From the NCBI GenBank assembly GCA_910586295.1, contig CAJUGE010000018.1, forward strand, positions 10,717 through 74,716: a stretch of DNA of 64,000 bases, in the 5' to 3' direction. The translations under genes and the position numbers were made by a program. Source of the stretch: an uncultured Bacilli bacterium (GTDB lineage: Bacteria > Bacillota_I > Bacilli_A > RF39 > UBA660). How positions within the stretch are numbered: position 1 is the first letter of the stretch; the number at the start of each line of letters is the position of its first letter. The notes beneath the pieces were generated by a model. It had not been told where the DNA came from. It did no database searches and saw only the letters and a program-made list of their open reading frames with translations. Below, in pieces: positions 36,943 through 41,074 of the stretch.

Positions 36943-38211
36943 ATGAAAAAAATTAAAATAATTATATTTAGTATTGCAATAATGCTAGCATCAATAATAG
37001 AGTTGAATGCTGCGACCTTTAGTATGTCATCATCAACAAAACAAATATCACCTAATGGAACATTTAGTATAAGTGTTGGAGGAGACTGTATAGGAAGAGT
37101 TAATCTATCAGTAACAAACGGAACCTTATCCACTAGCAGTGTATGGGTAGAACAAGGATACGCAACCGTAACTGTAACTGCTGGTTCAAGCGGTCAAGTA
37201 ACAATAACTGCAACCCCTGAGACAGGTTTTTCAGATTCTGATGCTAACATATATAATCCTGGATCAAGAAGTGTCACAGTAAAAATCGGAACATCATCTA
37301 ATACAAGTACAAACAATCCATCTAGACCAAGTACTAACACTCCAACTGTACAAAAATCAAACGACAACAACCTATCATCAATCACGATAGATAAAGGAGA
37401 AATAACTCCAAGTTTTAATTCCTCAGTGCAAGAATATACTATAAACTTAGGTCCAAACGAAAATGCTATAAAAATCTTAGCAACAACAGCGCACAACAAA
37501 GCCAAAGTTGATGGAATTGGTGAAAAAGCATTAAACCCAGGAAACAATATAATAGAACTTACAGTAACCGCAGAAAATGGAAATCAAAAAAAATATACAA
37601 TAAAAGTTTACGTTGATGAAAGTCCCCAAACATTCATAGAATACCAAAAAAAACAAATTGGAATAATTAGAAACTATGAAGGAGTAACAATTCCAGAAAA
37701 CTTCATAAAATCAGAACACACAATAGAAGGAAAACAAATAATAATATTTAACAACGAAAAACTAGACATAATATATGGAATAGACGAGCAAAAAGAAAAG
37801 AATTTCTATCTATTTGATAAAGAACAAAACAAAATACTAAACAAACTAATTCCGATTACAATAAACAACAAGACAATATACGTGACAGACGAAACCACAA
37901 AAATTAAAAATGCCAAATTAGAAAAAATAACTATAAATGAAATAGAAGTAAATTGTTATAAATTTGAAAAACAAAATTATTGCTTACTAAACACAATAAA
38001 TAATGAAGGAAAAAACATAAAATATTTATATGAAAGTAGCGAAAACAGCATACAAATATATCCAGAATTTCTTGGAACAAACACAAAAACAGGAACGATA
38101 GAAAACATAATGATATATGCTCTAAGCGCTTTCAGCATAATATTAATAAGTATAATAGTCTACTTATTAATAAAATTAAAAAAAGGTGAGCAGCATGAAA
38201 AAACTAAATAA
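36943..38211 (+). CDS. Cell-surface protein: signal peptide, N-terminal beta domain (possible cohesin-like), S/T/N/P linker, cadherin-like beta-sandwich domain, C-terminal TM anchor
   Basis: LSSITIDKGEITPSFNSSVQEYTINLGPNENAIKILAT...YTIKVYV matches the cadherin-like (PF12733-type) pattern; hydrophobic C-terminal helix plus KLKKGEQHEK tail. Confidence 0.65.
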   Translation: MKKIKIIIFSIAIMLASIIELNAATFSMSSSTKQISPNGTFSISVGGDCIGRVNLSVTNGTLSTSSVWVEQGYATVTVTAGSSGQVTITATPETGFSDSDANIYNPGSRSVTVKIGTSSNTSTNNPSRPSTNTPTVQKSNDNNLSSITIDKGEITPSFNSSVQEYTINLGPNENAIKILATTAHNKAKVDGIGEKALNPGNNIIELTVTAENGNQKKYTIKVYVDESPQTFIEYQKKQIGIIRNYEGVTIPENFIKSEHTIEGKQIIIFNNEKLDIIYGIDEQKEKNFYLFDKEQNKILNKLIPITINNKTIYVTDETTKIKNAKLEKITINEIEVNCYKFEKQNYCLLNTINNEGKNIKYLYESSENSIQIYPEFLGTNTKTGTIENIMIYALSAFSIILISIIVYLLIKLKKGEQHEKTK

Positions 38212-41074
38212 AATACTAATACTATTACTATGCATGCTAATAACATCAACAAACATAATAAGTAACGAAACAAAAGTTATCAATACAAGATCAAACGAAG
38301 AATTATTATCAACAGTCAATAAAAAAACGCTTAAAAACATAGTGATATTTATAGAATTTAACGACAGTGATACTTTAGTAACAAATCATTTAGATGACGA
38401 ACAAAGTGTAAAAAATGCAGAAGTCATATTTAACAATGAAGAATTATTTGAAATGGAAACCAAATATGGCAAAATAAAAGTTCCATCATTTAAAAAATAT
38501 TATGAAAGAGAAAGTTACGGAGACTTATCAATAACATCAGAAATATTTCCAAAAGAAAACGATAAAGTAGTATCATATAAAGACTCACATCCTATAGGCT
38601 ATTATTTAAAACACAACGATAAAAACGCAATAGGATATACAACTAAAGAAGAATCACTAAAAAGAGAGACAGAACTAATAAATAATGCAACCAATTACAT
38701 AGCTAGTATGGTAGGAGCATATGGAATAACAAGTGAAGAACTAGACACAAACAATGATAACAAAATAGATGCAATAACATATATAGTAGAAGTGCCAACA
38801 AGTTTGCCATCTTCAATCGCTTGGAATGACTTACTATGGTCTCATAAATTAGATAATGATGGAGTAACTGCAACAATCTTAGGAAAAAGGGCATCATCAT
38901 ATACATTGATAAAAGCAGAAGATTATACACAAACAGCGGGATTATTTTCATTAAATACTGGAACATATGGAACAATAATACATGAATTTGGACACACATT
39001 AGGTTTTATGGACTTATATAGATATGACTCATCGACTTCTAGACCAGTAGGATTTTATGACATAATGGGACAAACAATCGGATCAAATCCACAAAGTTTC
39101 TTAACGTACTACACTAGTGAATACATCAATAGCGCGGCATGGCATGCTCCATTACCAGTAATAACACAAAGTACAAACAATATAACTGTATACAAACCAA
39201 ATTACGTAGATAGAACAGAACAACGAGCAATCAAAATCCAAAGAAACACAACAGACAAAGAATTCTTTGTAGTGGAATACCATGACAAACTAAACACATA
39301 TGAGTCACACTCAGCAGATGAAAGTGGAATAATAATATATAGAGTAAATGAAAGCAATAAGTATCTAGGCGCAACAGACGGAAGCAACCAAGGAAAAAAC
39401 GATCACGTATTTATATTTAGACCTAATGAAACAGGCTTAGGAGAAGGTTTAGGAGACTTGAGACAGGCCACTCTAAACATGAAAAGGCCTACATTTGGAA
39501 GTGATATAACCAATGATAAAACATTCAACAATAAATCAATATACTATACAGACGGTTCAAATTCAGGGATAAAAATAGAAGTAACTAGCCAAACCGACAG
39601 TTCCATAACATTTAATGTAACATTTCCAAAAACTGAAGGAGAAGGAACAAAAGAAAAACCTTACATAATAAATGATGTAAATGAATTCCTTTACCACATG
39701 AGTTTAGACACAAAAAATAAATACTACAAAATAGTATCAGATTTAGACTTTAAAGACATAAAAGACTATCCAAAAATTGACTTTGACGGTAATTTAGATG
39801 GAAATAATAAAACAATAAAAAATGTAACAACAAATGGTTCAGGAATATTTAACAATATTAATATAAATAATTATCAAAGTCAAACCACAATAGAAAACTT
39901 AAACTTTGAAAACCTTAACATATATTCGAAAACAGGTAACTATTTAGGTGGACTTTCAACATCAGCAACAAATGTAATAATAAAAAATATAAGATTAAAA
40001 AGTGGAACAGTAAATAACGCTGGAACTTTAATGAACGACATAGCTTCAACTGGTGGATTCATAGGAAACGTAGACAATACAACAATAATAGAAGATTGCT
40101 ACACTAATCTAGATGTAACTGCTCCAAAAAATGTCGGTGGATTTATAGGAATCAACATGAATGCAAAAATAAAAAACAGTTTTAGTAATGGTAAAGTAAC
40201 AGGAAAACAAAACACAGGAAGTTTTATAGGATTACAAGCAATAACCGACAACACATATAACACACCCAACAATGTATACTACAATAAAAATAAAACAAAA
40301 AACTTACCAACAGTAGGTGGATATGTTAAATCATTTCACAACATAAATGCATTAAATGAAAATTCTTTAGACAAAGGAATAAGAAGTATAGAAACAAAAG
40401 AAGAAATAACAATAAACAAAAACTCTCTAATAGAATTTGTAGTGTCAATAAATCCTAATGCGATACTTAGTTATAATGTAGCAATAGAAGATTCATCACT
40501 AGCAACATACGAAAACAATAAAATAGTTGGGCTAACACCTGGAACTACACAAATCTATACAAACATAAAAGTAGGAACAAACGTTATGCAAATAACAACA
40601 AAACTAACTATAAAAGACATAGAAGGAGCACTAACAGAAAAAGAAGTTTTAGAATTGTTATCATTAACCAAAAAAGAAAACTATTTAATAGGATTTAATT
40701 TAGGAATGGAAGTACAAACATTCAAAAATAAAATACTATCTACTCCTACAGTAACGCTAAAAAGTTTAATAAATGAAAAAGGAATAGAAATAAAAGATGG
40801 AATAATATCTACAGGAATGAAACTTTGTTTAAAAATAAATAACCAAGACTACAATTACACAATCGTTATAAAAGGTGATGTAAATGGAGATGGAAAGATA
40901 TATGCAACTGATTATGTAAAAGTAAAAAATCATATAATGGGAAAAAGTTACATAACAGGAGCATACCTAGAAGCAGCAGACATAAATAATGATGGAAAAA
41001 TATATGCTACAGACTATGTTTTAATAAAAAATCACATAATGGGAAAAAAGCCAATAGAGCAAAAAATAAAATAA
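38186..41074 (+). CDS. Secreted zinc metalloprotease (HEFGHTLGF, M6/InhA-like) with Big_2-like domain and C-terminal type-I dockerin
   Basis: Signal peptide; HExxH at ~nt 38980; dockerin repeats DVNGDGKIYATDYVKVKNHIMGK and DINNDGKIYATDYVLIKNHIMGK at the C-terminus. Confidence 0.7.
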   Translation: MSSMKKLNKILILLLCMLITSTNIISNETKVINTRSNEELLSTVNKKTLKNIVIFIEFNDSDTLVTNHLDDEQSVKNAEVIFNNEELFEMETKYGKIKVPSFKKYYERESYGDLSITSEIFPKENDKVVSYKDSHPIGYYLKHNDKNAIGYTTKEESLKRETELINNATNYIASMVGAYGITSEELDTNNDNKIDAITYIVEVPTSLPSSIAWNDLLWSHKLDNDGVTATILGKRASSYTLIKAEDYTQTAGLFSLNTGTYGTIIHEFGHTLGFMDLYRYDSSTSRPVGFYDIMGQTIGSNPQSFLTYYTSEYINSAAWHAPLPVITQSTNNITVYKPNYVDRTEQRAIKIQRNTTDKEFFVVEYHDKLNTYESHSADESGIIIYRVNESNKYLGATDGSNQGKNDHVFIFRPNETGLGEGLGDLRQATLNMKRPTFGSDITNDKTFNNKSIYYTDGSNSGIKIEVTSQTDSSITFNVTFPKTEGEGTKEKPYIINDVNEFLYHMSLDTKNKYYKIVSDLDFKDIKDYPKIDFDGNLDGNNKTIKNVTTNGSGIFNNININNYQSQTTIENLNFENLNIYSKTGNYLGGLSTSATNVIIKNIRLKSGTVNNAGTLMNDIASTGGFIGNVDNTTIIEDCYTNLDVTAPKNVGGFIGINMNAKIKNSFSNGKVTGKQNTGSFIGLQAITDNTYNTPNNVYYNKNKTKNLPTVGGYVKSFHNINALNENSLDKGIRSIETKEEITINKNSLIEFVVSINPNAILSYNVAIEDSSLATYENNKIVGLTPGTTQIYTNIKVGTNVMQITTKLTIKDIEGALTEKEVLELLSLTKKENYLIGFNLGMEVQTFKNKILSTPTVTLKSLINEKGIEIKDGIISTGMKLCLKINNQDYNYTIVIKGDVNGDGKIYATDYVKVKNHIMGKSYITGAYLEAADINNDGKIYATDYVLIKNHIMGKKPIEQKIK

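Follow-up and report, generated by a model that had tools for sequence, protein, structure and literature searches.

Two adjacent genes, here termed A and B, lie on the forward strand of a 64-kb window, i.e., the whole stretch of 64,000 nucleotides (nt) analyzed, which belongs to contig CAJUGE010000018.1 of an uncultured Bacilli bacterium and has a low guanine–cytosine (GC) content of about 27–30%. Gene A encodes a membrane-anchored surface protein and gene B a secreted zinc metalloprotease with a C-terminal dockerin (Table 1). Both proteins carry signal peptides, and A has a single C-terminal transmembrane helix. In order, A consists of the signal peptide, an N-terminal domain (N-domain), a Ser/Thr linker, a cadherin-like domain, a C-terminal β-domain, the transmembrane helix, and a short basic tail. 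The AlphaFold model of full-length A, with a predicted local distance difference test score (pLDDT) of 85.6, shows the N-terminal all-β domain, the disordered linker, the cadherin-like domain, and the C-terminal transmembrane helix. The signal peptide is presumably cleaved after residue 23, and the mature start, A-A-S/T-F, is invariant in the alignment of the A family. Besides the two motifs listed in Table 1, the N-domain contains the conserved motif SSVWVEQ. Membership of A in PF12733 is above threshold, and the match is found in 57/57 family members. An initial annotation of this locus had assigned to A a C-terminal membrane anchor, a cadherin-like domain, and an N-terminal all-β domain, and these assignments hold in AlphaFold and Pfam. 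However, the Ser/Thr-rich stretch that it called a stalk is not membrane-proximal but a 26-residue linker between the N-domain and the cadherin-like domain. A also carries a β-rich domain of about 150 residues between the cadherin-like domain and the transmembrane helix, which that annotation did not mention. This domain (residues 226–375) has no Pfam match in A or in the 57 family members, and it is missing from the Saccharibacteria-labeled and the SH3/cadherin-type anchors described below.

The open reading frames (ORFs) were confirmed as first annotated; counted from its first possible start, B comprises 962 residues (38186–41074), and gene callers chose the ATG listed in Table 1. B is built from a signal peptide, an M6 catalytic domain, a GLUG region, an immunoglobulin-like (Ig-like) domain, a pre-dockerin β-domain, and a type I dockerin. 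The initial assignment to the M6/InhA-like proteases, based on HEFGHTLGF, stands: B matches PF05547 above threshold and carries HEXXHXXGXXD, the zinc motif of peptidase family M6. The NCBIfam model TIGR03296 scores just under its cut-off of 110.8 (102.1 bits, E 4.9e-29). The GLUG motif sits within a repeat-rich middle region (about 39690–40400). The two canonical type I dockerin repeats at the end of B, DVNGDGKIYATDYVKVKNHIMGK and DINNDGKIYATDYVLIKNHIMGK, read as originally described. Both contain the EF-hand-like calcium-loop residues D1, N3, D5, and D12, which are invariant or nearly so across 46 orthologs. By sequence, the dockerin of B matches 22 PDB sequences of solved type I dockerins at E<=0.01, including 8x39 (3e-10), 3ul4_B, 1daq, 2mte, 1ohz_B, and 2ccl_B. 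No second dockerin-bearing ORF occurs within the 64-kb window; B stands alone.

Table 1. Features of the A/B locus and of related minimal cassettes. Positions refer to the window except in the last row, where they refer to the respective locus; Pfam residue positions of B follow the 962-residue numbering (aa, amino acids; SD, Shine–Dalgarno; TM, transmembrane).
Feature	Position	Strand	Basis or remark
SD sequence AAGGAG, 6 nt 5′ of the gene A ATG	36931–36936	+	read from sequence
Gene A, type I membrane anchor protein, 422 aa	36943–38211	+	ORF list; full-length family conservation; AlphaFold model
A signal peptide, residues 1–23, ending ...IIELNA	36943–37011	+	hydrophobic N-terminus; model helix residues 2–16
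A N-domain, residues 24–117, 94-aa Ig-like β-sandwich	37012–37293	+	AlphaFold; candidate dockerin receptor
N-domain conserved motif GGDCIGRV	37078–37101	+	sequence
N-domain conserved motif GFSDxDANxYNPG	37225–37263	+	sequence
A Ser/Thr/Asn/Pro-rich linker, residues 117–142, 26 aa	37291–37368	+	pLDDT <50 at residues 119–135; composition from sequence
A cadherin-like β-sandwich PF12733, residues 144–223	37372–37611	+	Pfam E 1.4e-8; 35.5 bits vs cut-off 24.2
A C-terminal β-hairpin-rich domain, residues 226–375, ~150 aa	37618–38067	+	13 strands, pLDDT ~90 (model)
A TM helix, residues 389–410	38107–38172	+	model helix residues 384–414; sequence
A basic cytoplasmic tail KLKKGEQHEKTK	38173–38208	+	sequence
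Translational-coupling junction, 17-nt A/B overlap	38184–38211	+	SD-like AGGTGAG and B ATG (38195) within the last codons of A
Gene B, secreted M6-family zinc metalloprotease, 959 aa	38195–41074	+	ATG chosen by gene callers
B M6 (InhA-like) catalytic domain	38318–39340	+	PF05547 E 4.4e-8, 33.2 bits vs cut-off 22
B zinc motif HEFGHTLGFMD, residues 263–273 of the 959-aa protein	38981–39013	+	sequence
B GLUG motif PF07581	40130–40201	+	E 2.8e-6, 27.8 bits vs cut-off 20.5
B type I dockerin, Dockerin_1 PF00404, residues 896–951	40871–41050	+	E 7.5e-16, 58.5 bits vs cut-off 22.9
B dockerin repeat 1	40877–40945	+	sequence
B dockerin repeat 2	40979–41047	+	sequence
Terminator-like hairpin, with T-run to 41159	41126–41149	+	52 nt past the B stop codon
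Saccharibacteria-labeled cassettes	L070 5986–9379; L072 5974–9118; L074 5992–9307; L075 5995–9415

The two genes are tightly joined. Among 46 non-identical A/B pairs, on which all conservation and junction counts below are based, the overlap is exactly 17 nt in 38, with a GG-rich SD-like motif upstream of the B ATG. A conserved KGxxHEK sequence at the end of A was considered as a cytoplasmic motif and rejected, since the SD motif and the ATG-AAA-AAA start of B overlap the last codons of A and account for the apparent conservation of the tail. The hairpin 3′ of B is the one terminator-like site in 36400–41300; this count is not above chance, and the position alone is suggestive. It probably marks the end of a two-gene operon.

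The initial annotation had suggested that the N-terminal domain of A could be a cohesin, the usual partner of dockerins. It is not a cohesin. A gave no match to Pfam Cohesin (PF00963) at E<=0.1, and this family is absent from those listed for the 57 A-family members at E<=10; the weak Pfam matches in the A family are to the Ig-like families Big_1, Big_2, fn3, and PKD, and the N-domain itself has no significant Pfam match. A profile of the A family, compared with the sequences of solved structures, matched no solved cohesin. In hhalign comparisons with CipA cohesins, whose sequences were checked against 1OHZ, 1AOH, and 3KCP, the N-domain reached probabilities of 0.2–1.2%, as against 99.9% for the control alignment of close and distant N-domains. 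A Foldseek search with the full-length model of A placed no cohesin among the top 50, but for the identity of single domains it was uninformative, yielding generic tandem Ig-like matches (intimin, SbsB/C, and cadherins); the N-domain was therefore re-modeled alone. Structure prediction, which had been proposed as a check on the cohesin assignment, gave an Ig-like, non-cohesin fold: with 32 homologs, the pLDDT was 94.4 and the predicted template modeling (TM) score 0.84, and the 94 residues form about 7–8 strands rather than the nine-stranded jelly roll of about 140–150 residues that characterizes cohesins. The best PDB neighbors of this model in Foldseek are intimin D0-D1, the SbsC S-layer protein, a GH3 fn3-like domain, and α2-macroglobulin MG domains (TM about 0.5–0.63, E 1e-3 to 1e-2, identity 15–22%), with no cohesin among the top 50 and nothing at E<=1e-3.

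The A family, with proteins of about 420 residues, is conserved over its full length (291 matches in a homolog search) and occurs in metagenome-assembled genomes (MAGs) of uncultured gut Bacilli, "Tenericutes", and Clostridia. In databases, the relatives of A are named only "hypothetical" or "cadherin-like beta sandwich domain-containing protein". For four relatives with 43–48% identity, the next gene always encodes an M6/GLUG/dockerin protein and overlaps by 17 nt, and the flanking genes of these four pairs are unrelated between genomes. A scan of GTDB species representatives revealed 65 loci; where the contig permits, A is followed by an HExxH gene ending in dockerin loops. Adjacency was then tallied over 1.06 Mb of fetched DNA by a frameshift-tolerant six-frame count with custom hidden Markov models. 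Among 99 loci with an N-domain gene, 90 were informative, and 89 of these have a dockerin directly adjacent on the same strand, although many are near-duplicates from the same species and independent observations are thus fewer than 89. The fairest denominator is the set of 58 informative GTDB species representatives, 57 of which show the adjacency. No dockerin was found elsewhere in the 1.06 Mb, away from N-domain genes, and the sole exception to the pairing, L038 (7265–8623), has a truncated B-type gene in which the dockerin was not found. This conserved gene pairing strongly supports the earlier proposal that the gene next to the dockerin-tagged protease encodes its cognate anchor.

The N-domain is rare, with 289 matches among 1.84 billion representatives in a profile search. 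It nearly always lies right behind the signal peptide, in proteins of 250–560 residues, with one N-domain per anchor. A of the window is a core member of this anchor family, since it combines an Ig-like domain of ~95 residues after the signal peptide, a C-terminal transmembrane helix, and a dockerin gene as neighbor. Across the family, the dockerin is all that the cargo proteins share, and the N-domain is the only folded ectodomain common to all anchors. Profile matches with 14–15 copies that looked scaffoldin-like (P0151, P0152, and others) were rejected as N-domain arrays; they are Bacteroidota SprB-type repeats that match through their T/S/G-rich composition. A homolog search with the dockerin alone, made for other cargos, returned only fragment ORFs of 40–121 residues and was uninformative. 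Split or truncated B-type genes were observed at L009/L010/L052 (9346–12482, in three ORFs in L009), at L076 (a frameshift inside the dockerin at ~1990), and at L038; they may be assembly errors or real pseudogenes.

A second class of cargo is found in a divergent branch of the family. Seven divergent N-domain members were sampled by contig, and all six informative ones have a dockerin-terminated gene immediately upstream. Likewise, in a metagenome scan made with a tighter alignment of distant N-domains (A4), since a broad one (A3) was too diverse, all 13 loci with an anchor ORF and room upstream show a dockerin-terminated gene directly upstream. Here, the cargo is a peptidoglycan hydrolase in which a PF01832 Glucosaminidase or GH73-like domain, in some cases accompanied by SH3b, is combined with Dockerin_1 (E 1e-13 to 5e-19 for the seven hydrolase partners scanned). 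The hydrolase gene precedes the anchor, so the order is flipped relative to the M6 pairs, and the junction ranges from a 4-nt overlap to a 24-nt gap. Apart from the dockerin, the M6 and hydrolase cargo classes have no module in common. The divergent anchors (L076, L078–L080, L081–L095, L097, and L098) consist of the N-domain, with or without SH3b, one to three cadherin-like repeats, a transmembrane helix, and a long cytoplasmic tail with a conserved motif, often ending in KGKRFK or GKHF. A phage origin of the hydrolase-type pairs was considered and rejected, as tblastn against phages matched the SH3b and cadherin-like parts only and never the N-domain. A gene pair of similar type is present in the cultured Vescimonas fastidiosa MM35 (GC 61%) at L100 3792–7299 (NZ_AP023416.1, 503342–506849). 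Its "dockerin type I domain-containing protein" WP_212821509.1 comprises SH3b, a GH73-like region, and Dockerin_1, the calcium-ligand residues being lost in the second repeat; the gene lies 10 nt upstream of that for WP_212821511.1, a "cadherin-like" transmembrane protein with the same overall layout. A homolog search with this Vescimonas anchor gave only strain variants of at least 95% identity, and near-identical Vescimonas proteins are very abundant in human-gut metagenomes (1965 matches, one cluster having 1550 members).

The simplest anchors were found in MAGs labeled Candidatus Saccharibacteria, which account for 5 of the 65 GTDB loci (L070, L072, L074, and L075, which were read, and L073). 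These anchors, of 258–271 residues, contain only a signal peptide, the N-domain, a long low-complexity S/T/P/E-rich stalk, and a transmembrane helix. In the four loci read, an M6 gene follows with the same 17-nt overlapping junction; it ends in a dockerin in L070, L074, and L075, and the L072 frame stops before the dockerin. The GC content of the cassettes is 41–44%, the same as that of their flanks, and they are therefore not chimeric Bacilli DNA. Taken with the MAG labels, this suggests that the two-gene unit has been transferred across phyla. The pairing thus survives changes of cargo, gene order, and phylum label.

Conservation within the two proteins is concentrated in the N-domain and the dockerin. 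The mean pairwise identity is 69% for the N-domain but 29–45% elsewhere in A, and the dockerin is the most conserved part of B (78%, compared to 60% for the catalytic domain). In both dockerin repeats, positions 9–14, 17–18, and 20–23 are near-invariant. These include positions 10, 11, 17, 18, and 22, the canonical cohesin contacts, and the conservation goes well beyond the needs of calcium binding.

Collectively, A and B are reasonably likely to constitute a translationally coupled two-gene module for enzyme display, in which the dockerin of B attaches the enzyme to the N-domain of A. The data directly establish how the two proteins are built from domains, their topology signals, the fold of the N-domain as other than that of a cohesin, the adjacency and coupling of the genes, and the pattern of conservation; from these, we infer dockerin/N-domain binding, its 1:1 stoichiometry, surface display, and the substrates of the protease. 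On comparative evidence from sequences, A is very probably the partner of the B dockerin. In the proposed mechanism, A would be exported and held in the membrane by its C-terminal helix, with the ectodomain facing outward and the small Ig-like N-domain at its far end. B would be secreted through its own signal peptide, and its calcium-binding type I dockerin would bind the N-domain in a calcium-dependent manner, so that each anchor would carry one M6/GLUG metalloprotease at the end of a flexible stalk on the cell surface. The N-domain would then do the job of a cohesin without being one, and the same logic may be reused in related bacteria to tether peptidoglycan hydrolases. As for other receptors nearby, no Pfam Cohesin is recorded for neighboring genes in the annotated loci, and no CipA-type cohesin was detected in the 1.1 Mb scanned, which is weak evidence because the profile used was a narrow, CipA-only one. 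In the literature searched, no description of this anchor/dockerin pairing was found. Going further, there is about an even chance that the N-domain founds a new family of receptors for the type I dockerins of bacteria, Ig-like in fold and distinct from cohesins. One class of orphan dockerins, in gut bacteria that do not degrade cellulose, would then have its missing partner; anchor and cargo would form a minimal system, tethered to the membrane, for the 1:1 display of proteases and peptidoglycan hydrolases; and the two genes would have moved together as a cassette between Bacillota and episymbiotic Saccharibacteria.

Several points weigh against docking onto the N-domain. The modeled domain has an Ig-like fold, not that of a cohesin, and an Ig-like receptor for a type I dockerin of bacteria would, to our knowledge, be without precedent. 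The redundancy of the sampled loci lowers the weight of the raw adjacency count. The N-terminal domain of the V. fastidiosa anchor is a borderline relative of the N-domain (hhalign 53%, versus 0.5% for cohesin). Furthermore, a partial Mantel (mirror-tree) analysis with overall divergence controlled gave no specific co-variation between the N-domain and the dockerin (r=0.07, p=0.14), a null result ascribed to both modules being too conserved within the M6 clade, and a slightly better correlation with the dockerin was seen for the C-terminal domain of A (r=0.23). Finally, cohesins can be too divergent for sequence searches to detect (2026 paper, PMC13463774). It is conceivable, albeit quite unlikely, that the dockerin binds such a genuine distant cohesin on a scaffold encoded elsewhere, A being a co-expressed accessory surface protein, e.g., an adhesin or a substrate-binding partner. 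This would agree with the failure of the N-domain in every cohesin test and with the missing co-variation. Yet no cohesin was found in the sampled neighborhoods or the 1.1 Mb scanned, and where the cargo differs, the adjacency still follows the N-domain and the dockerin. Genomes with unrelated flanks, and likewise Bacillota and Saccharibacteria-labeled MAGs, share only the two-gene cassette; therefore, a third component would have to move independently.

Two further explanations concern the role of A rather than a missing partner. A might be mainly a regulator, i.e., an inhibitor, immunity factor, or maturation partner of self-damaging hydrolases, possibly still acting through contact with the dockerin. 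M6 protease and glucosaminidase/GH73-like cargos can harm their producer, the tight translational coupling suggests that stoichiometric co-production matters, and hydrolase cargos already carrying SH3b wall-binding domains would not need a dockerin for mere retention. On the other hand, the layout of stalk and transmembrane helix with the conserved domain distal to the membrane is typical of display proteins, and no protease-inhibitor or immunity family in Pfam or NCBIfam matched A. We regard regulation as the main function of A as unlikely, and it overlaps with docking-based display rather than excluding it. Many non-cellulosomal dockerins have no known partner, and the dockerin of B could likewise be a calcium-stabilized C-terminal module, or a binder of glycans or the wall, with A and B co-transcribed for the same process and not physically linked. 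For an essential dockerin protein, a study in Saccharibacteria suggests that glycans are targeted (PMC10633639). However, the residues on the partner-contact helix face are invariant far beyond calcium needs and symmetric in both repeats, and a shared process alone hardly explains an adjacency that extends over two cargo classes and two gene orders. The absence of any physical link is thus very unlikely.

The A/B pair shares several features with cellulosome anchoring, as known for Clostridium thermocellum CipA with its anchoring scaffoldins and for Ruminococcus flavefaciens ScaE. Here, too, an enzyme bears a C-terminal, two-repeat, calcium-binding PF00404 dockerin, and a dedicated anchor protein, the product of a nearby gene, presumably retains it on the cell surface; with its near-identical repeats, the dockerin of B resembles those that bind in two orientations. 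The differences are considerable, however. The presumed receptor is a 94-residue Ig-like domain instead of a cohesin, the anchor has one such domain, paired 1:1 with cargo, instead of a multi-cohesin scaffoldin, and anchoring is by a C-terminal transmembrane helix, not by S-layer homology domains or sortase. Proteases or peptidoglycan hydrolases take the place of plant-cell-wall enzymes as cargo, and a carbohydrate-binding module (CBM) is lacking. Indeed, neither CBM nor glycoside hydrolase families in Pfam and NCBIfam matched the A/B pair of the window. A minimal cellulosome-like system, as envisaged in the initial annotation, is therefore not what the locus encodes: with one N-domain per anchor, one cargo gene, no multi-cohesin scaffoldin, and no carbohydrate-active cargo or CBM in the pair, there is no multi-enzyme scaffold. 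The non-cellulosomal systems, including the glycosidase complexes of Clostridium perfringens, the amylosome of Ruminococcus bromii, and archaeal or other orphan modules, are likewise small and place dockerins outside cellulose degradation in gut anaerobes. Still, they use recognizable cohesins, whereas no cohesin was detected here and the dockerin is accompanied by a domain of another fold.

Other known systems resemble individual parts of the pair. The "lyticome" concept was put forward for dockerin-bearing cell-wall hydrolases in Ruminococcus champanellensis (PMC6403190). The divergent branch (L076–L098 and L100) similarly combines dockerins with peptidoglycan hydrolases, but in the lyticome these are reported to dock on scaffoldin cohesins, whereas in the branch every hydrolase gene comes with a separate gene for a membrane anchor that bears the N-domain. 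The essential dockerin protein of the Saccharibacteria genetics paper is listed there with its partner unspecified (PMC10633639). B shares the HEXXHXXGXXD motif, the PF05547 match, and the GLUG motif with the zinc metalloproteases of the M6 immune inhibitor A (InhA)/GLUG type; it differs from them in its C-terminal dockerin, its dedicated membrane anchor, and a TIGR03296 score just under the cut-off. The nearest structural neighbors of the N-domain, the intimin/invasin Big_1 and S-layer SbsC domains, are also surface-exposed β-sandwiches on stalk-like proteins, although conserved motifs of its own and a unique genomic link to dockerins set the N-domain apart.

Dockerins are common in bacteria without a cellulosome, often without a detectable cohesin, and their binding partners have long been unclear. 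The N-domain, which has no Pfam family or solved structure and, in essentially all genomes that contain it, adjoins a gene ending in a dockerin, whichever enzyme this gene encodes, is a concrete candidate. If it is such a partner, the cohesin–dockerin paradigm would gain a second receptor fold, and the surface retention of proteases and cell-wall hydrolases in uncultured gut Bacilli, Clostridia, and possibly Saccharibacteria epibionts would be explained. This would bear on nutrient acquisition, the degradation of host proteins, and attacks on neighboring cells, and it would offer protein engineers a very small orthogonal docking pair.

The surroundings of the pair hold further genes. Directly downstream of B, 41203–41946 encodes a zinc-ribbon plus Yip1 membrane protein; in L003 and L004, too, B is followed by zinc-ribbon and Yip1 genes. 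Next, 41974–44028 encodes an M4 thermolysin-like protease with an N-terminal cytoplasmic zinc ribbon, a transmembrane helix, FTP/PepSY propeptide motifs, and a CarboxypepD_reg domain; it is a second surface metalloprotease, differently anchored. The 437-nt gap that precedes gene A contains an open frame (~36589–36873, +) of about 94 codons, with a hydrophobic N-terminus and a Cys/His-rich tail (…CICDYHYEK…CGVPDCPYKGYHIHETNHNYHH…CHHNR). This frame has an SD-like AGAGGTG but no canonical start (ATT/ATA only), and was not called by gene callers. The 108-residue ORF at 36179–36505 (+) has no Pfam or NCBIfam match and recurs in L001 and L002, the matching public contigs; it resembles what is left of the C-terminus of a larger surface protein (…WTMTP…VRPVISLK…). 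The host looks like a spore former because SpoIIGA and sigma-E genes are present at 49.5–51 kb. In the left part of the window, 2125–8922 encodes a protein of 2266 residues with SNF2/ResIII/Helicase_C only in its C-terminal third, and 11689–13455 encodes a large serine recombinase (Resolvase, Recombinase, and Zn_ribbon_recom); the GC skew falls between about 14 and 28 kb. These features probably mark an integrated mobile element there.

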